Origin: a virus
Direction: 5' to 3' (one strand)
DNA length: 64,000 bases
Virus record (IMG/VR): IMGVR_UViG_3300037264_003623
Location: 1 to 64,000 of that record
Below, in pieces: positions 4,091 to 19,090 of this stretch (the stretch's first letter is position 1; every line of letters begins with the position of its first letter). The position numbers were made by a program, and so were the translations under genes. The notes beneath the pieces were generated by a model that was not told the origin of the DNA, did no database searches, and saw only the letters and a program-made list of their open reading frames with translations.

Positions 4091-7000
4091 ATGGCTCGCA
4101 AGGGAATCAGCATCCCCAGGCTCTTCTGCCCTGGGGACGATCCATACTCTCTGTTCAAGTGGGTCAGGAAGAACGTCGATGCGAAGGACAAGGATGGGAA
4201 GCCGGTGACGTCCCACGAGGGGGTGGAGGTCCCCGACTTCTGGAGTGACAGTGCAGCGTTCATCCTCTCGGACAAGTACTTCCGAGCAGCCCACGGGTCA
4301 TGCCCGAGGGAGATCTCCCTCAAGCAAACGCTCGACCGGGTGGTCAACGAGATCGTCAAGTGGGGGGTCGAGCACGGCTACTTCGACAAGGCTAACGGAG
4401 CCGTCTTCGGGAACGAGCTCCGGGTGATGATCGCGTCCCAGCGGTTCTCGTTCAACAGCCCCGTCTACTTCAACGTGGGGTGCATGGACAAGCCGCAGTG
4501 CGCCGCGTGTTTCATCCTCGTCGTCTACGACGACCTGGGCAGTATCTCCGCGATGGTCCCGGTCATCGTGCATGTGTTCTCGCATGGGTCGGGATGCGGG
4601 TTCAATCTGTCCCTGCTCCGTGAGATGGGTGCCCCCCTCTCCAGGGGTGGGGTCGCGTCCGGGCCGAAGTCCTTCCTGCTCGGCTACAACTCCTTCGCCG
4701 GGATCATCAAGTCGGGCGGCATCCAGCGCAGGGCGGCCATGCTCGCCAGGCTGGACGACACTCACCCCGATGTCCTCGACTTCATCGAGATGAAGAGCGT
4801 CGAGGAGCGGAAGGCCCGCGCCCTTGTTCGGAAGGGGTACACGGTCGAGGAGGCGTACAAGACTGTTGCCTTCCAGAACGTGAACCTCTCCATCGGGATC
4901 TCCGACGCATTGATGAAGGCGGCCCTGGAGGGGAAGGACTGGGTGCTGAAGTCCGTTCTCACGGGGAAGACGGTCAAGGTCATCAAGGCGATGGACCTTC
5001 TCGACATGATCGCTCACGGGGCTCACTTCTGCGGGGACCCCGGCATCCAGTTGGACGATACGATGAACCGGGGCAACCCCCTGATCCGGGTCTCGAAGAT
5101 CCTCTCTACGAACCCGTGCGTTGTCGGGTCCACTAATGTCTACGTCAAGGAGGGGAAGAAGACGGTCCTCAAGCGGGTAGACCGGATCAAGGAGGGGTCC
5201 GCCAAGATCCTCAGCTACGACTTCGAGAAGCGGAAGCCGGTGTTCGCTAAGGCGACCTTCTTGGGGAAGACGCGGCAGAACGCCAAAGTCGTGAAGTTGA
5301 AAACGGCGAAGGGGGAGATCCGCCTGACACCGGATCACGAAGTCATGACGAGCAGGGGGTGGATCAAGGCGGCGGACATCCAGAAAGGGGACAAGATCTA
5401 CCGGGTGAAGGTGATAGGAGGAGTTTCAGGAGAGTTTGGAGATTCGCAGACATACCCCGGCAGAACGAGCCAGGTCGTCGTCCCCGATGGCAATGTCGAA
5501 GAGATCGAGGTCCTGGGGATGGAGGAATGCGAGGAGGGGGAAGATGTCTACGATTTCAGCGTCCCGAAGCATCATGCCTTCTTCACGGAGGAGGCTCTTG
5601 TCTCGAATTGCGCCGAGTTCGTCTGCATCCCCAATACCGCATGCAACCTAGCCTCCATGAACCTCGCCATGTTCTACCGAGACGGGGCGTTCCAGCACGA
5701 GGAGTTCCGCCACGCGGTCAGGATTTCCATCGTGGCGCAGGACATCCTCGTGGGGCTGAGCGGGTACCCGACGCCGGAGATCGACAAGAACTCGAACGAG
5801 TACCGGCCGCTGGGCCTCGGGTTCACGAACCTCGGTGGGATGTTCATCAAGATGGGCATCCCCTACGACAGCGACCAGGCCAGGATGCTCGCCTCGGCCG
5901 TCTCCGCCGACATGACGGCGACGGCGTACCAGGCATCGGTGGACATCGCCAAGGTCCTTGGCCCCTTCTCCGGGTTCGAGTACAACCGGAAGGCGATGCT
6001 CGCCGTCTTGAAGGCGCACAAGAACAAGTTCAACGCCCTCGCGGACGCCCACAGCGGGGCAGCAGACCTCGACGGGATATCAGACGAGTGGGAGAAGGTG
6101 TGCCAGGAGGCGGTGAAGCACGGGATCAGGAACTGCCAGGTGACGCTGGTGCCCCCCGCGGGGACGATCTCGAACATCCTCGACTGCACGACGGCTGGGA
6201 TCGAGCCGATCCTGTTCAGCGCGACCAAGAGGAGGCTCGACGCGGGCGGGGAGCTGATCGTCCCCTCGTTCGAGATCGACCGGGGCCTGGAGGGTCTCGG
6301 GTACTCGAAGGAGGAGAGGGCGATAATCACGAAGTACATCGAGTCGAACGGGACCCTCTCCGGGGCACCGGTGGTCAAGCCGCAGCACCTTCCCGTCTTC
6401 GACCCGGTGTACCCCCTGAAGGTCGGGGACAGGCGGGTGTCGGCAATGGCCCAGATCCAGATGATGGGGGCGGTCCAGCCGTTCATCTCCGGCTCCATCT
6501 CCAAGACGATCGGCCTGCCGGAGTCGGCGAGCGTGGAGGAGGTGAAGGAGACCATCATCCAGGCGTGGAAGCTCGGCCTGAAGGCGATCTCCTTCTATCG
6601 CTCCAACTCGAAGATGAGCCAGCCCCTCGTGAACGCCATCCTGGAACAGGAGAAGATGGAAGAGGAGGAGGGGGGTCCCGCGAGAAGAGTCATGCCGCAG
6701 GAGGTCAGGGCGCACATCCACCGCGGGGTGGTCGGGCCGGGTTCGACGTCGGAGACGAAGCTCTACATCATCCCGGGGGAGCGCGAGGACGGCACGCTTG
6801 GGGAGGTATTCGTCACGCTCGCCAAGGAGGGGTCTGCCCTTCGCGGACTGGTGGACGCCCTCATGACGGCGGTCTCCATCGGGCTCCAGTACGGGGTGCC
6901 CCTGGAGGTCTTCTGCAAGAAGTTCATCGGGACCAAGTTCGAGCCGATGGGGTGGACTAGGAACGAGAAGATCAAGTTCGCCACGAGCCTGGTGGATTAC

Positions 7001-13410: not shown

Positions 13411-14232
13411 ATGAGCGATTGGTTTGACACCGGGAAGAGCGCGGTGGACCGCGCCAATCAGAAGTCCACGGGCAGCAAGATTTCCCTGCGGTTCTACCTC
13501 AAGCCCAACTCCGAGGCGACCGCCCTGTTCGTCGACGGCGACAACACTCCAGAGGAGCCGATCGGGAACTTCAAGGAGCACGCCTTCGAGACGACCGACG
13601 GCAAGTGGCCCAACTTCTGCACCTGCGTCGGTCCGGCGAAGTGCCCGGTGTGCAAGGAGGGCCTGCGGCCCTACGACGCATGGCCGCTGACCATCGTCCA
13701 GCTCCGGCCTTCGTGGACGGGGCGGGACGGCAAGGAGCACAAGTTCGAGCGCAAGCTCCTGATCGCCAAGAAGGAGGCGATGCAGAAGATCCTGCGGTTC
13801 GCGGCCCAGCGGAAGGGCCTCGTGGGCACGGTCTGGAACATCTTCCGCACGGGCGACCGCGCCTACACCATCGGCGACGACTGGCAGTTCGTCTCGAAGG
13901 TCGGCGGCGAGGGCATCCTCACCCCGGCCCAACGGCGGGTGGAGATGGCGAAGCCGTTCGACATCTCGGTCATCGGGTCGGACGGGAAGCAGATCGACAT
14001 CCGCGCCGAGATCCCGACCGAGAACGTCCAGCCGCTCAACTACCGGGAGCTGCTCAAGCCCAGGACCTACGAGGAGCTGATGCAGGACGGCATCGACTTC
14101 GAGGGGACGAAGCGCCGGGCGGCCTCCTGGGGCGACAAGGACGGCAAGGGGGGCGGAGGACGGGGAGGCCAGCGCGGCGGCGGGGGGCCGGGGGGCGGCG
14201 GGAAGGGCAGCGAGGACGAGGTTCCGTACTAA
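13411..14232 (+). CDS. Single-stranded DNA-binding protein, T4 gp32-like
   Basis: H...CTC...CPVC zinc site, Gly-rich linker, acidic-aromatic tail EDEVPY, strong codon bias, replication context. Confidence 0.75.
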   Translation: MSDWFDTGKSAVDRANQKSTGSKISLRFYLKPNSEATALFVDGDNTPEEPIGNFKEHAFETTDGKWPNFCTCVGPAKCPVCKEGLRPYDAWPLTIVQLRPSWTGRDGKEHKFERKLLIAKKEAMQKILRFAAQRKGLVGTVWNIFRTGDRAYTIGDDWQFVSKVGGEGILTPAQRRVEMAKPFDISVIGSDGKQIDIRAEIPTENVQPLNYRELLKPRTYEELMQDGIDFEGTKRRAASWGDKDGKGGGGRGGQRGGGGPGGGGKGSEDEVPY

Positions 14233-14277: not shown

Positions 14278-14354
14278 AGCGGGATTGAGGAGCTGGTTAC
14301 CTCGCCGGGCTCATAATCCGGAGCAGGTCGGTTCGATTCCGACTCCCGCTACCA
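14278..14354 (+). tRNA. tRNA-Met(CAT), initiator-like
   Basis: AGCGGGA/TCCCGCT acceptor, CCGGG-CTCATAA-TCCGG, TTCGATT loop, encoded CCA. Confidence 0.9.
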
Positions 14355-14691
14355 TTGATTCGTGTAGTTTTCGGTGACAGTTGGCACATAGGATAAGGCA
14401 CTTTGCGACTTCTTGAAGGATTTTGGCTTTCCCCCATCCTTTTTTGTGGATGAGATGGCTGATCGTGGTTTCCTTTAGGGAAGGATCGATGTGATGAAAG
14501 TCAAGGCAGATGATATCTGATTCTCCGCAAGTTTTGCATTTTAGGGTGGACTTGAGCGAGGCGATCCATGAGGCAAGACGATCCTCTCTTGAGCGGACGT
14601 ATTGAAGATGTCTTGCTCGATTTTTCCGATACTAGATTTTCATGTAGGCTGCGTGCTTTCGTGCGCCTTCTTTGGGATCTTTGTAGGGCAT
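14311..14691 (-). pseudogene. HNH endonuclease with premature TAG (absent from the ORF track)
   Basis: MPYKD...AYMKI*YRKN...CKTCG...CLDFHHIDP...KC..LCANCHRKLH; in-frame TAG at 14632-14634; final stop is antisense to the tRNA-Met anticodon loop. Confidence 0.85.
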
Positions 14692-14718
14692 GATGATCCT
14701 CATAACTAAACGTTGTGG

Positions 14719-15375
14719 TTATGATACCATGTTCGGGAGGCGATGGCAAGAGGGTTCGACTCCGGCTCCCGCAACCAGTTGCTCCCCAGGGATGGGGTGA
14801 TCGAATTCCCAATGATGATTGGGGCATAGGGCCACAAGGTTGTTGGCCGCGTTGATCTTGGTGAGTTTGGTTTCAGGGGGGAAATCCTTGACCGGTTTCT
14901 TGTGGCAGACTTCCGCATGGCGGGAGTAACTACAGACCTCACAGACGAGTTTTGGATGGGTTTTGAGGTAGACAGCGCGGGCATGAGAACGGATCACACT
15001 ATGAGAGGAACTTGGGGTATTCCTCGAAAAGATGTCTGCCTTCGTGAGGCGGGATGCGCGGCAGTCGTCGCACACCTCCCGCTTGAGGGTTTGTCCGGAA
15101 GGCCGTCTTTTCCTGGGAATCTCTTTTCCACAAGAGCGGCAGATGTCGTGCAACACTTTTCTGACTCGCTTGGAGGCATGAAAGAGGGCGTTGCACTGCT
15201 GATTGCAGAACCGTTTCACTTTGACGTCGGAAACCTTCTGCCCGTCGCGAACGGGGATGGGCTTCCCGCACGACAGGCAGATAACAGGGTTTGCGAGATA
15301 TCGGGCGATGGTGGCGGCGCGAAGTTTCAGTGCGGTTGCTTTTCCACCGGCTTGCTGGCCAGAAAGGGAAGGCAT
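14719..15375 (-). CDS. HNH endonuclease with Zn ribbons
   Basis: CLSCG, FCNQQC, CEVC..SRHAEVCH...NLVALCPNHHWEFD. Confidence 0.88.
   Translation of the reverse strand: MPSLSGQQAGGKATALKLRAATIARYLANPVICLSCGKPIPVRDGQKVSDVKVKRFCNQQCNALFHASKRVRKVLHDICRSCGKEIPRKRRPSGQTLKREVCDDCRASRLTKADIFSRNTPSSSHSVIRSHARAVYLKTHPKLVCEVCSYSRHAEVCHKKPVKDFPPETKLTKINAANNLVALCPNHHWEFDHPIPGEQLVAGAGVEPSCHRLPNMVS
14752..14777 (+). pseudogene. Orphan 3' end of a tRNA-fMet-like gene
   Basis: GGGTTCGACTCCGGCTCCCGCAACCA with no matching 5' half adjacent. Confidence 0.7.
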
Positions 15376-15412
15376 AGTAACCTCCGAACAGGTACTAACA
15401 AGATACTAACAT

Positions 15413-15465
15413 AGCGGGGTGGGGAAAGCAGGAGGTCGGCGGTTCAAGTCCGCCCCCCGCTACCA
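15413..15465 (+). ncRNA. 53-nt tRNA-like element lacking anticodon and D arms
   Basis: Perfect AGCGGGG/CCCCGCT acceptor, GGCGG-TTCAAGT-CCGCC T arm, ACCA end, only an 18-nt connector. Confidence 0.7.
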
Positions 15466-15520: not shown

Positions 15521-15593
15521 GGGCGGATAGCTCAGCCGGTAGAGCGCCACGCTGATAACGTGGAGGCCGGGCGTTCGACTCGCCCTTCGCCCA
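15521..15593 (+). tRNA. tRNA-Ile(GAT)
   Basis: GGGCGGA/TTCGCCC, CCACG-CTGATAA-CGTGG, TTCGACT. Confidence 0.9.
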
Positions 15594-15637
15594 TGAGACG
15601 GCGGAAGGGCGCGGCCACGGTTCGGCATCGAGCTCAC

Positions 15638-18600
15638 ATGGCCGAGGAGAAGAGGATCCAAGACGCCAAGGGCAGGCTTCTCACCCTCCTGCGTAAGGGG
15701 GGCGGCGACGAGGGCCTGCGCTCGCTCCTGGAGTCGGACCCGGCGGCGGTTCAGGCCGCGGCCAGGCGAGACGAGGCGAGGAGGAAGGGGATGTCCAACA
15801 TCGAAGAGGCGGTGGCCTCCCTCACGAAGGCGGCGGCGTTCTCTCTGGACCTGGAGACGGACGGGCCGTCGAGGGCAGAGGCGACCGACCCGCTCCGGGG
15901 AAAGATCGTCGGGGTCTCGTTCGGGGTGGACTTCAAGCCGGGCTCGTCGTGGTGGTTCCCATTCGAGGGGGGAGCCGCGGCGGGGGAACAGGTCTTCTCT
16001 CAGGTCGAGGTATTCCGGGCCGTCCAGCCAATCCTTCTCGATCCTGCCAAGACACTCATCGGGTCCAACTGCAAGTTCGACCTCATGTTCTTGAAGATGA
16101 ACGGGGTGGAGGTCAGGAACAGGCTGTTCGACACGGTGGTCGCCGACTGGATGATGAACGAGAACAACCGGCGGCACGGCCTGAAGGAGATCGTCAAGAG
16201 GGAGTTCGACGTCGAGCTGGAGAAGTTCACGACGGCGTGGGCGTCGAGGGACCTCGTGGGGGGGAGCCGGTTCTCTGAGTACGCGGTGAACGACGCGAGG
16301 TATGCCTTCAAGCTGTGGCGCGACGTCCACATGAAGTTTCTGGAGGCGAAGGGGAGCGAGAGGCTCAGCAAGCTCTTCCACTCTGTCGAGATGGAGATCG
16401 TCCACATCTTCATGGAGGCCGAGATGGAGGGCGTGTGCATCGACCTCGCCTACATCGCGGCCCTCAAGGAGAGGATGGAGACGGCTAAGAAGGAGGCCGC
16501 CGACCGGGCGTTCTCGATCATGGGGCGGCCCTTCAAGATCAGCTCCCCGGAGGAAGTCAGCATCATCCTCTTCGGGGTTCCGCCGGAGGAGGCGCTTAGG
16601 TCCGCGATGGAGTCCAGGGAGCGAAGGAAGCCCAAAGCCGCCAAGAAGGACCTAGTCGAGAAGTTCAACACAAAGGGGCTGTTCGGTGCCCCGAAGGGCA
16701 TGTTCCCGGTCCCCCTGGACAGGAAGGGGAGATCGGTCCTCCCGGGCGACAACGGGTTCTACTCCACGGACGACTCGGTTCTCAATGGGTACGACCATCC
16801 CTTCGTCAAGGCCCTTCTCGATTACCGGAGCGCGAGCCAGACGCTCAAGTTCTTCGTGTACGCCTACATCGGCGGGGACCCGGACGATCCCAAGAAGGTC
16901 GGGTCCGTTCGTGACGGGCGGGTGTACCCCGATTTCCATCAGGCAGGCACGATCGCGGGCCGGTTCTGCGTTTCGGGAGATACGGTGCTGGAGACATCGG
17001 TTGGGATTTGTCGTATTTCTGATTTAGAATTGCCTAATAATCAGCAAGTATCTATAATCACTCATAGAGGACAGCCCCGGCGGATCCTCGGCAAGTACTA
17101 CCTCGGGAGGGAGGAGATGTTCCGGGTCGTGCTCGATAACGGGTCGAGCATCGCCGGGACGAGGGGGCATCGGGTTCTGACGTCGGGGGGATGGAGACAT
17201 CTCTATGAGTTGCGGTGCGGCTCCAGGGTGCTTAGTTCCTGTGATTCGGCTCGACGGGGCGGTGTACAAGGGCAGGCGGCATGTGTTGCCGGAGGACGTA
17301 TTCAGGAAGCTGCTGGAGGAGGAGGATATCTGGGAGGCGGAGCTCCTGCGGAAGTACCGGATAGGGAGGCATGTCTGGTATGCCTCGAAGTATCTGTACG
17401 GGGAGAAGTACGGGGAGCAGATTCGGCGACTGCACCGGAATCGGCTTTCGATGGCCTTGACCGGGAACCGGAATGGGGAGCGGAAACCGGCCAGGATGGT
17501 CCCCAAGGAGATCCTCCAGTCATTTCTGGATGTGGGGTACAATCTTCCGGAGATGGCGCGGAGGTTGGGGATGAGCGAGTTTCTGATTCGGAGGAATCTT
17601 TCGCTTCATGGATTGGCTCGGACGGGGCAGTTACCTCGGCACATGCAGGCGACGGACTTGGAAATGGTTCGTCGGCTGGACACTCTTTCCCCCGGGCTTA
17701 TGGAGGCGGCGAAGCAATATCACGAGAGGCCGAAGGAGTTCTACGACGCCCTGTATGTCGCCTTCGCGAGGCTTGTCCAGCATCTCTGGTTCATCCAGGG
17801 ACTCTCGGGGGGCTATCGGTATCTAAGGGACCGGAAGCGTCTCCCGAAGAATCATGTTTGTTGGAGCATGAACAGGGCGGAGCTGCAACTATCGATGGCT
17901 CTTCTCGACGCGGGGATACCCCATGTTCGCCAGTTCTTCATGGAGAGGTACATGGTGGACTTTGCCTTTCCGGAGGCGAATCTACTGGTGGAGGTGGACG
18001 GGGAATACCACAAGGCGGACGCGGTTACGAAATGTCGGGACGTCAGAAAGGCGGCGAAGATTCAGGAACGGGGATGGGGGGTTCTGCATTTCACGACGAA
18101 GCAAGTCGAGACGAATCCTGGGGAAGTGGTTTCGTCTATCCGACGGCGGCTGTCGTCAGCATTGAGTCCATAGGCGAGCAGGACGTATGGGACATAGAGG
18201 TGGAGGAGGACCACTCCTTCATCGCCAATGGTTTCGTGAACCACAACTCGTGCAGCGAACCCAACCTTCAGCAGGTAAGTGGCAAGAAGGGCCTGGTCAA
18301 GCCGATGTTCGTCCCGCCTTCCGGACATAAGTTAGTAGTTGGTGACTTCAACCAGCTCCAGTTCCGCCTGGCGGGGCACTACGCCAAGACATGGTTCGGG
18401 AAGTCGAACATCGCGGACGCCTACCTGGCCGGGATGGACCTTCACACGAGGACGATGAGGGAGCTCGGGTTCGACAAGAAGTACCCGGACCCGAAGGAGG
18501 CACGGAAAGAGGCCAAGAGGGTCAACTTCTCATTCATCTTCGGGAGGGGCGCCTCGTCGTTCGCCGAGGAGAACAAGCGTCCTTCCGCCGAGGCCACGAT

Positions 18601-19090
18601 GTTCTACAACGGGTTCCACAAGTCGTACCCCGAGATCCGTTGGTGCTCGAACAAGTGCCGCAAGGACCTCTGCGAGAAGGGATATGTGGAGTCGATCCTC
18701 GGCAGGCGGAGGAACTTCCCGCAGCACAAGGGCAAGGACCCCAACGCATACGAGAAGAAGGAGGAGGACGGCGGGCCCCGGAGCAACCTCTGGTGGGATG
18801 GGTGGGTGGCGTGGAACGCGGTGGTCCAGGGCGCGGAGTCGGATCTGGTTCGGATCGTCATGCGGAACATCTACCGCGAGATCCTGGAGCGGCGGAAGGC
18901 AGATCCGAGGTGGAACACGGTCAAGATGCTCATTCAGGTCCACGACGAGATCGTCTATCAGGCGCCCGACGAGATCGCCGAGGACATGGCGACGTTGATG
19001 CGCGAGAAGGGGTCGAACTTGCTCACCCTAAAAATCCCCATCATCTTGGACGTCGGTGTGGGAGTGACGTGGGAGGCTGCTAAGAAATGA
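15638..19090 (+). CDS. polA: Family A DNA polymerase (3'-5' exonuclease + polymerase) with intein
   Basis: DLET, N.KFD, YAVND exonuclease motifs; T.AGRF|SCSEPNLQQ; motif A DFNQLQFR, motif B RKEAKRVNF, motif C QVHDE. Confidence 0.95.
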   Translation: MAEEKRIQDAKGRLLTLLRKGGGDEGLRSLLESDPAAVQAAARRDEARRKGMSNIEEAVASLTKAAAFSLDLETDGPSRAEATDPLRGKIVGVSFGVDFKPGSSWWFPFEGGAAAGEQVFSQVEVFRAVQPILLDPAKTLIGSNCKFDLMFLKMNGVEVRNRLFDTVVADWMMNENNRRHGLKEIVKREFDVELEKFTTAWASRDLVGGSRFSEYAVNDARYAFKLWRDVHMKFLEAKGSERLSKLFHSVEMEIVHIFMEAEMEGVCIDLAYIAALKERMETAKKEAADRAFSIMGRPFKISSPEEVSIILFGVPPEEALRSAMESRERRKPKAAKKDLVEKFNTKGLFGAPKGMFPVPLDRKGRSVLPGDNGFYSTDDSVLNGYDHPFVKALLDYRSASQTLKFFVYAYIGGDPDDPKKVGSVRDGRVYPDFHQAGTIAGRFCVSGDTVLETSVGICRISDLELPNNQQVSIITHRGQPRRILGKYYLGREEMFRVVLDNGSSIAGTRGHRVLTSGGWRHLYELRCGSRVLSSCDSARRGGVQGQAACVAGGRIQEAAGGGGYLGGGAPAEVPDREACLVCLEVSVRGEVRGADSATAPESAFDGLDREPEWGAETGQDGPQGDPPVISGCGVQSSGDGAEVGDERVSDSEESFASWIGSDGAVTSAHAGDGLGNGSSAGHSFPRAYGGGEAISREAEGVLRRPVCRLREACPASLVHPGTLGGLSVSKGPEASPEESCLLEHEQGGAATIDGSSRRGDTPCSPVLHGEVHGGLCLSGGESTGGGGRGIPQGGRGYEMSGRQKGGEDSGTGMGGSAFHDEASRDESWGSGFVYPTAAVVSIESIGEQDVWDIEVEEDHSFIANGFVNHNSCSEPNLQQVSGKKGLVKPMFVPPSGHKLVVGDFNQLQFRLAGHYAKTWFGKSNIADAYLAGMDLHTRTMRELGFDKKYPDPKEARKEAKRVNFSFIFGRGASSFAEENKRPSAEATMFYNGFHKSYPEIRWCSNKCRKDLCEKGYVESILGRRRNFPQHKGKDPNAYEKKEEDGGPRSNLWWDGWVAWNAVVQGAESDLVRIVMRNIYREILERRKADPRWNTVKMLIQVHDEIVYQAPDEIAEDMATLMREKGSNLLTLKIPIILDVGVGVTWEAAKK
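16967..18247 (+). mobile_element. Intein (427 aa) in PolA with an out-of-frame nested gene
   Basis: CVSGDT...GTRGHR...VWDIEVEEDHSFIANGFVNHN / S; central 320 aa are low-complexity in the PolA frame. Confidence 0.92.
17205..18173 (+). CDS. DUF559/Vsr-like endonuclease nested in the +1 frame of the PolA intein
   Basis: HTH LPEMARRLGMSE; AELQL..AL, YMVDFAF...LLVEVDGEYH...RD......GWGVLHF; GGAG 8 nt upstream of ATG. Confidence 0.85.
   Translation: MSCGAAPGCLVPVIRLDGAVYKGRRHVLPEDVFRKLLEEEDIWEAELLRKYRIGRHVWYASKYLYGEKYGEQIRRLHRNRLSMALTGNRNGERKPARMVPKEILQSFLDVGYNLPEMARRLGMSEFLIRRNLSLHGLARTGQLPRHMQATDLEMVRRLDTLSPGLMEAAKQYHERPKEFYDALYVAFARLVQHLWFIQGLSGGYRYLRDRKRLPKNHVCWSMNRAELQLSMALLDAGIPHVRQFFMERYMVDFAFPEANLLVEVDGEYHKADAVTKCRDVRKAAKIQERGWGVLHFTTKQVETNPGEVVSSIRRRLSSALSP

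Follow-up and report, generated by a model that had tools for sequence, protein, structure and literature searches.

Two antisense HNH endonuclease genes overlapping tRNA-Met-type 3' ends may record repeated nuclease-driven invasion of a phage tRNA locus

The window analysed here covers the first 64 kb of IMG/VR record IMGVR_UViG_3300037264_003623, a virus contig of 109 kb. Between a gp32-like SSB gene and an intein-carrying PolA gene (PolA ~15.6-19.1 kb) lie two HNH endonuclease genes, HNH-1 and HNH-2, both on the strand antisense to the neighbouring transfer RNA (tRNA) genes and both ending within a tRNA-Met-type 3' end. Three tRNA-Met-type copies accompany them: an intact gene, A, and two shortened ones, B and C (Table 1). 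The intact HNH-2 belongs to a widespread tRNA-docking nuclease family that is a little-described variant of the known homing endonucleases. The locus may have formed through repeated nuclease-driven invasion of tRNA-Met, in which each nuclease gene moves with the tRNA that it abuts; the chances that this reading is right are about even.

Each nuclease frame reads through the antisense of a tRNA 3' end. HNH-1 runs on the minus strand from an ATG at 14691, preceded by GAGGA, to a TGA at 14313-14311, which is the complement of U33-C34-A35, the anticodon-loop TCA of A. Positions 33-76 of A, read in antisense, supply its last 13 codons and stop; the translation ends in HESMVAGVGIEPTCSGL, and the last residues, VAGVGIEPTCSGL, derive from the acceptor, T arm and variable region. 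HNH-2 ends in EQLVAGAGVEPSCHRLPNMVS, and its end, LVAGAGVEPSCHRLPNMVS, is read through a second tRNA-like 3' end, that of B. Residues ~198-218 of HNH-2 are the antisense of B, which is contained entirely in the 3' end of the gene. Because each open reading frame (ORF) overlaps a tRNA 3' end, the nuclease gene necessarily carries that end along. A search for the T-loop, acceptor and ACCA pattern with zero mismatches found three sites at the locus (14330-14354, 14753-14777 and 15441-15465), and at up to 3 mismatches the window holds 6 matches against 0.15 expected. The original prediction, made from the letters of the window, had given the order tRNA-Met, HNH-1 (minus), tRNA-Met-type 3' end, HNH-2 (minus), with both frames ending in antisense tRNA, the HNH-1 stop on the complement of the anticodon-loop TCA, a single in-frame TAG in an HNH-1 frame missing from the ORF list, and an HNH identity for both genes. 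Every one of these elements is present; the third copy, C, lay outside that prediction and is part of the same story.

A is the only complete tRNA(CAT) that ARAGORN finds among the tRNAs of the contig, and is the sole predicted working tRNA(CAT) of the phage. It has the acceptor AGCGGGA/TCCCGCT, A11:U24 and G29-G31, and starts 7 nt past the SSB terminator hairpin, which is the spot expected for the native tRNA-Met and the one that tRNA-Met occupies in the related contigs L002 and L060. B retains a 5' acceptor strand (14732-14738) that pairs at 6 of 7 positions with its 3' strand, followed by a short linker, a T arm with a canonical loop and two stem mismatches, the acceptor TCCCGCA, and ACCA. 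It lacks ~30 nt of the D and anticodon arms and receives no call from ARAGORN or Rfam. A and B have an ATGT 5' flank in common, and their 3' ends are identical at 23 of 28 positions. The 5' acceptor strand shows B to be a tRNA with an internal deletion and not a bare 3' end; what had been predicted as an "orphan 3' end" does include that end, and is otherwise a whole tRNA minus its D and anticodon arms.

C has 7/7 acceptor pairs, 5/5 T-stem pairs and ACCA, with 18 nt between the acceptor strand and the T arm. Its loss of ~24 nt spans the D arm to the anticodon, and Rfam matches it to the tRNA-like domain of transfer-messenger RNA (tmRNA; E 7.9e-5). The acceptor AGCGGGG/CCCCGCT and the next TGG are common to C and the post-SSB tRNA-Met of L002 and L060, so C is the tRNA-Met native to this lineage, shortened by ~24 nt. 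A and B belong to a different tRNA-Met type (A7:U66). The last 28 nt (3') of C also occur unchanged in two IMG/VR contigs (L103 1334-1410 and L104 10884-10960), as part of a bacterial-type elongator tRNA-Met; this identity may be a clue to the phage's host group or to where its tRNA-Met came from.

The shortened copies could have been retained as functional tRNA-like minihelices, acting as RNase P/Z signals, decoys, or promoter or 3'-end elements of the HNH transcripts. The perfect stems, ACCA and tmRNA match of C would suit such a role, as would a promoter-like site within B (TTGCCA-17-TATCAT with TG) and the extended -10-like boxes TGGTATCAT and TGTTAGTAT at the 5' ends of B and C, respectively, on the minus strand. 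That promoter-like site is a single occurrence against 0.6 expected, both stems of B contain mismatches, and in folding neither B nor C outdoes its shuffled sequences (z 0.21 and -0.26). The stem differences between C and its relatives are inherited from working tRNAs and give no sign of selection after the deletion, and a general mini-tRNA scan near HNH genes, which was swamped by matches inside complete tRNAs, showed no systematic association. Retention for a minihelix function is very unlikely.

HNH-1 matches the PHROG HNH families phrog_2255 (E 2.7e-23) and phrog_3106 (E 1.4e-21), and scores 13.4 bits against Pfam HNH, under the threshold of 21.4. Despite the strong PHROG match it lacks the intact reading frame expected of an HNH endonuclease. 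Its TAG takes the place of a conserved residue that is Tyr or otherwise aromatic in homologues, none of the start codons past the TAG gives a usable ORF, and the frame is missing from the ORF list because of this codon. Recoding of TAG was considered and rejected, as TAG ends 49/142 long ORFs of the contig and no suppressor tRNA was found among the contig tRNAs. TAG is thus an ordinary stop in this contig, and HNH-1 is a pseudogene, one mutation short of intact. A third HNH-like ORF, a weak match to the profile of the HNH-1 family (E 3e-5), is located outside the window at contig positions 77562-78194.

HNH-2 is a member of the CPNHHWEFDH family, with Cys-rich zinc-ribbon-like modules at the N-terminus. 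It passes Pfam HNH_2 (PF13391) with 24.9 bits against a cut-off of 21 over residues 145-193, and aligns over its full length with the family. C145, C148, H158, N179, C184, H187, H188 and D192 are invariant over 27 relatives. An AlphaFold model has a mean predicted local distance difference test score of 88.7 and is of low confidence only in the tRNA-coded tail. It places two strands (155-158 and 180-183) ahead of a helix (185-192), which may be those of a beta-beta-alpha metal finger. Foldseek matches this model to McrA, TagI, the Gme HNH and T5 SciA, all weakly (E at least 0.03), and nothing close was found among solved structures searched by sequence and by fold. HNH-2 is probably active still.

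The likeness between the two HNH proteins is limited to the HNH motif and the tRNA-coded tail (13/33), which indicates independent arrivals and not duplicates. Agreement in frame between the two tails carries no significance in a single pair of genes, and the bias is meaningful only over the HNH-2 family. Independent arrival bears on a comparison with SegB, a GIY-YIG free-standing homing endonuclease of the T4/T6 tRNA gene cluster (PMC2330249, PMC13096335). SegB cuts in tRNA genes at a T-loop-like motif, RAWTSGAAC, and in T6 its tandem repeats of a tRNA plus a segB truncated at its C-terminus are joined by microhomology (PMC13096335). A similar break-induced segmental amplification could have produced tandem units of tRNA-Met and HNH that later diverged, and HNH-1 indeed lacks the 5-25 residue C-terminal tail usual in its family, its tRNA end falling 7 nt past the last His codon. 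This origin is close to refuted by the sequences: the HNH proteins are unrelated beyond the motif and tail and fall into different PHROG and Pfam families, and A and B agree at only 23/28 positions of their 3' ends.

The block that holds HNH-1 and HNH-2 is foreign in composition. G+C content (GC) is 62.6% over the contig, which carries 11 tRNA genes, and falls to 0.48-0.56 over 14300-15400 against 0.62-0.74 in the flanks. The whole block, A, HNH-1, B and HNH-2, might have been built in another phage's tRNA array and have entered once by recombination at the tRNA-Met locus, in which case the stacking says nothing on serial homing in this lineage. Low GC extends over the whole 1.1-kb block, A and B are of one type with the same 5' flank, C is the sole native-type copy, and the HNH pair is operon-like, with 27 nt from the HNH-2 stop to the HNH-1 start. 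The two parts differ in composition, however (0.475-0.50 in HNH-1 and 0.53-0.565 in HNH-2), and a 5.8-billion-protein collection yielded neither a contig that carries the block nor one whose HNH-2 is at least 90% identical. Successive events would still be needed somewhere for the stacking. A single transfer is rather unlikely.

Comparison with related phages places the arrival of the nuclease genes in this lineage. Relatives were found through SSB, and L237, L059, L060, L002 and L001 were compared; two SSB relatives at 72-74% identity were not included. In L237, the closest found (84% SSB identity), SSB is followed by a long and odd tRNA-like element, tRNA-Arg(CCT) and a PolA without intein. 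L059 (70%) has one tRNA in the SSB-PolA gap, and in L060 and L002 (57%) the gap contains tRNA-Met, Val, Ile, Asn and Gly, with tRNA-Met directly past SSB. As the tRNA content differs between relatives, the gap is a fluid tRNA hot-spot. None of the five has an HNH gene in this gap, and the HNH genes are therefore specific to this lineage. Such sporadic presence at a locus among relatives is the pattern of a free-standing homing endonuclease gene. A DNA-level comparison with known phages found none resembling the window.

The tRNA linkage of HNH-2 extends through its family. A survey of the CPNHHWEFDH family covered 105 distinct loci, 48 bacterial and 57 phage. With docking in bacteria defined as a convergent tRNA 3' end at -100 to +70 nt from the HNH stop, 21/48 bacterial loci are docked, and 20 of those tRNAs are tRNA-Arg(CCT), in hosts that span Bacteroidota, Chloroflexota, Dependentiae and Patescibacteria; a tRNA on the 5' side of the HNH gene occurs in merely 2/48. 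Among phage loci, 27/57 have a tRNA at the HNH 3' end, including 14 tRNA-Met(CAT) (10 co-directional, 4 convergent) and 6 tRNA-Arg(TCT), and a tRNA(CAT) lies within 500 nt in 25/57. Over the first 20 loci, convergent tRNA ends number 7 against 1.4 expected, and tRNA-Met accounts for 7/24 neighbours against 6/121 other tRNAs (p 0.0013, which is optimistic, like the p-value for T loops below, since some docked lineages are related). At least 13 lineages have the tRNA 3' end 8-27 nt past the last HNH-motif codon, and their proteins close on antisense-tRNA C-terminal tails of the form G-x-E/A-P, such as GLEPS, GFAPS and GVEPT; the tail LPEGFAPS, on tRNA-Arg(UCU), is among those seen. At one other locus, L005, the arrangement recurs, with a full tRNA-Met, then an HNH gene in antisense, then a mini tRNA-Met paralogue. 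In cultured phages, Streptomyces phage TomSawyer gp109 lies ahead of tRNA-Ile and Cronobacter phage GAP32_373 past tRNA-Thr.

Within Hymenobacter, the family is present in 21/121 genomes, two of them with internal stops, and this patchy distribution is as expected for a selfish nuclease gene. A comparison of empty and occupied sites in the genus gave no clean insertion boundary, since L233, the nearest genome without the HNH gene, carries a rhodanese gene in that slot. Among the bacterial loci (L105-L152), many Hymenobacter species have the HNH gene convergent with, and 40-67 nt from, tRNA-Arg(CCT), as in L121 (1516-2139). In Chloroflexota, Dependentiae and Patescibacteria the family gene overlaps tRNA-Arg(CCT).

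The tRNAs beside these nuclease genes are unusual in their T loops. The canonical TTCRA T loop is missing in 11/28 convergently docked tRNAs against 16/218 others (p 2e-5), and a GTGCRA T loop (U55G) occurs in 14/243 tRNAs of HNH-2 loci against 0/167 of control loci. Such numbers are a hint that the target includes the T loop and that mutation of this loop brings escape, a pattern that resembles target-site immunity. Odd T loops in tRNAs abutting HNH-2 homologues include ATCGTTA, AGCGTTA and TGAGAAT (L005 4611-4681, L022 ~4290-4345, L031 3819-3894), and a CGTTACCC core is common to L005 and L022 although their tRNAs differ.

These family data also bear on the simplest alternative, that the tRNA-Met paralogues decayed alone, that HNH genes merely fill spacers, and that the overlaps reflect lost stop codons. 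The tRNA content of the gap is different in every relative, HNH genes are generally common in tRNA arrays (PMC5966550, PMC8421152), and any deletion of at least 24 nt that spares the acceptor and T arm necessarily takes the anticodon arm. Yet docking at tRNA ends and enrichment for tRNA-Met and tRNA-Arg over the 105 loci are far above chance, the layout of full tRNA, HNH and mini tRNA recurs in L005, and docked tRNAs are enriched for non-canonical T loops. Decay of the array is quite unlikely to account for the locus.

Under repeated invasion, the reading held at about even chances, a fluid SSB-PolA hot-spot would have been colonised on the antisense strand by two unrelated free-standing HNH homing-endonuclease genes. 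When such a gene abuts a tRNA-Met-type gene tail-to-tail without a spacer, its frame enters the antisense acceptor and T arm and continues until a stop; the tRNA-coded peptide tails are probably by-products of this tight junction and not functional parts. The nucleases would cut sensitive tRNA-Met alleles, repair would copy the nuclease gene plus the overlapped tRNA, and the resident tRNA copy would stay alongside, minus the cut region. A second invasion would be the same process again. The native tRNA-Met would thereby be left as remnant C, and the other type would be present twice, as B, deleted and read through by HNH-2, and as A, intact. Cleavage of tRNA-Met DNA, the order of these events and the cause of the deletions are what we infer.

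Several observations weigh against this reading. No near-identical sister genome was found, and the pre-insertion site and the number of events are not directly seen. B and C retain 5' acceptor strands, a feature not expected if a tRNA had simply been inserted into. A duplicated tRNA end is missing in most family loci, including all of those in Hymenobacter. The HNH-1 family, which in tRNA arrays is mostly co-directional and 30-50 nt ahead of various tRNAs, was not found beside tRNA-Met in any sampled locus. The T loops of A and C are canonical although HNH-2 looks intact. A serial model also makes the dead HNH-1 the last arrival and the intact HNH-2 an earlier one, and its oldest remnant, C, has perfect stems while B is decayed. 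Finally, 35 further phage contigs (IMG/VR) share the 3' end of A, and just one of them has an HNH-2 homologue; the idea of a sequence that moves with the HNH genes was rejected on this count, and the A 3' end is, as judged from its distribution, a common phage tRNA-Met type and not HNH-specific.

The original prediction had proposed serial homing in which each cassette brings its own replacement 3' end, restoring the tRNA in the manner of an integrase. This proposal is upheld in part: the block is foreign and absent in relatives (84%, 70% and 57% SSB identity), the comparison that the prediction had called for, and the HNH-2 family is tRNA-linked and enriched for tRNA-Met, where homologues unlinked to tRNA-Met would have spoken against it. 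The HNH-1 side of the proposal finds no counterpart in its family. Integrase-style restoration does not fit B and C, which have their own 5' acceptor strands, nor the divergence of A from B and the different tRNA type of C. A swapped 3' end is likewise unsupported, given the family loci that have no duplicated end and the common phage type of the A end.

A broader reading, which is tentative and somewhat less than probable, is that the CPNHHWEFDH family, together with a second, unrelated HNH nuclease of the same layout, comprises cut-and-replace gene drives on RNA genes. The nuclease would recognise a tRNA gene (tRNA-Met here, tRNA-Arg elsewhere), probably with the T loop in its site, and would be fused by overlap to a resistant tRNA copy. 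Homing would then destroy the resident and install the spare in one intron-free step, and the window would be a record of one drive invading another. It is also a possibility that the nuclease is throttled by the mature tRNA, a perfect complement of its mRNA at the 3' end.

The features of the locus are collected in Table 1, and a few further observations concern its surroundings. A direct repeat, TACTAACA-aga-TACTAACA, occupies 15391-15411 between the HNH-2 start and C; its minus strand contains the extended -10-like TGTTAGTAT that abuts the 5' end of C, and TGGTATCAT, which abuts the 5' end of B, lies upstream of HNH-1. A split-tRNA model was also considered and rejected, as no separated 5' and 3' halves were found at the locus. 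A search for 5' fragments left of A gave a weak CGGGAGG resemblance past the SSB stop, which was not counted. CTCATAA, the anticodon-loop heptamer of tRNA-Met, is found at 14699-14705 just upstream of the HNH-1 start, without a flanking stem; it was not counted either, and may be chance or the last trace of a split tRNA. On the minus strand, the CAT within it reads as an ATG that lies upstream and in frame. Farther right, the PolA proteins of L059 (8128-10353) and L237 (7177-9390) have 737-741 amino acids, are ~68% identical and are continuous where the window PolA (15635-19090) has a ~415-residue insert, which confirms an intein-type insertion specific to this phage. The SSB-PolA gaps of L060 (7365-7500) and L237 (6906-7032) contain a tRNA-like element of ~125-135 nt with a matching 7-nt acceptor pair, a D-arm-like start, a T arm and 50-70 extra nt mid-element. 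Neither ARAGORN nor Rfam (gathering threshold) calls this element, which could be an interrupted or intron-bearing tRNA.

Table 1. Features of the tRNA-Met locus and its neighbours (window positions).
Feature	Position	Strand	Basis or remark
gp32-like SSB gene	13411-14232	+	ORF and acidic tail; left border of tRNA hot-spot, synteny anchor
A, intact tRNA-Met(CAT)	14278-14354	+	ARAGORN; Rfam tRNA 53.2 bits
HNH-1, 126-codon HNH endonuclease gene with 1 nonsense codon	14311-14691	-	Translation, PHROG, family alignment
In-frame TAG of HNH-1	14632-14634	-	Translation and family alignment
HNH-2, intact 218-aa HNH endonuclease	14719-15375	-	ORF list, Pfam HNH_2, family alignment
Promoter-like site within B, upstream of HNH-1 GAGGA and ATG	14721-14749	-	Weak consensus match
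B, internally deleted tRNA-Met-type remnant	14732-14777	+	Stem pairing, pattern scan; without ARAGORN or Rfam call
C, tRNA-Met remnant with ~24 nt deleted	15413-15465	+	Stem pairing; Rfam tmRNA tRNA-like-domain match
tRNA-Ile(GAT), right-hand neighbour	15521-15593	+	ARAGORN, Rfam

Among known systems, SegB is the closest precedent, as a free-standing nuclease gene that sits amid phage tRNA genes and takes neighbouring tRNAs along. It differs in being a GIY-YIG enzyme and not an HNH enzyme, and in that segB lies on the tRNA strand while the genes here are antisense. The reports on SegB describe no isotype preference, antisense-tRNA tail-to-tail overlap or internally deleted tRNA remnants. We know of no convergent overlap with tRNA 3' ends among the HNH enzymes of T5 F-Tfl. 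They resemble the present genes as HNH enzymes from free-standing ORFs in a phage tRNA gene region (cited in PMC2330249 and PMC5714182).

I-Ssp6803I is the homing endonuclease of the Synechocystis tRNA-fMet gene, so that both its home and its target are of tRNA-Met type (PMC1995217). It has a PD-(D/E)XK fold, and its self-splicing group I intron keeps the tRNA functional, whereas the present arrangement is intron-free and a separate intact tRNA copy would maintain function. Its target reportedly lies in the anticodon region, as Bonocora and Shub are said to have described in 2001. The integrases that target tRNA genes have an attP that carries a tRNA 3' end. The likeness to them is that incoming DNA brings a tRNA 3' end and a complete tRNA gene remains; the differences are that no integrase is involved here and that the leftovers are middle-less whole tRNAs of different sequence types. 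In the tRNA arrays of mycobacteria, mycobacteriophages and cyanobacteria, no protein genes are as widespread as HNH genes, which are suspected of moving or reshaping these arrays (PMC5966550, PMC8421152). Those two reports concern co-location only, with no nucleotide-level docking, overlap or isotype specificity, and literature searches found descriptions of HNH and tRNA-array co-location but not of tRNA-end docking or spare-tRNA cassettes.

Homing endonucleases are known in phage tRNA clusters, while the intron-free invasion of RNA genes is poorly described. The locus and the survey bring together an HNH family that sits 8-27 nt from tRNA ends, with lineages tied to tRNA-Met, tRNA-Arg(CCT) and tRNA-Arg(TCT). 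The family ranges over phages and at least four bacterial phyla, and mutations of the near-universal U55 are unusually frequent in the adjoining tRNAs. For annotation, it accounts for spurious-looking G-x-E-P tails and for overlaps between tRNA genes and coding sequences. If these enzymes do cut tRNA genes, this would help to explain the rapid turnover of phage tRNA repertoires, would explain the source of dead mini-tRNAs, and would offer natural nucleases with specificity for tRNA genes.

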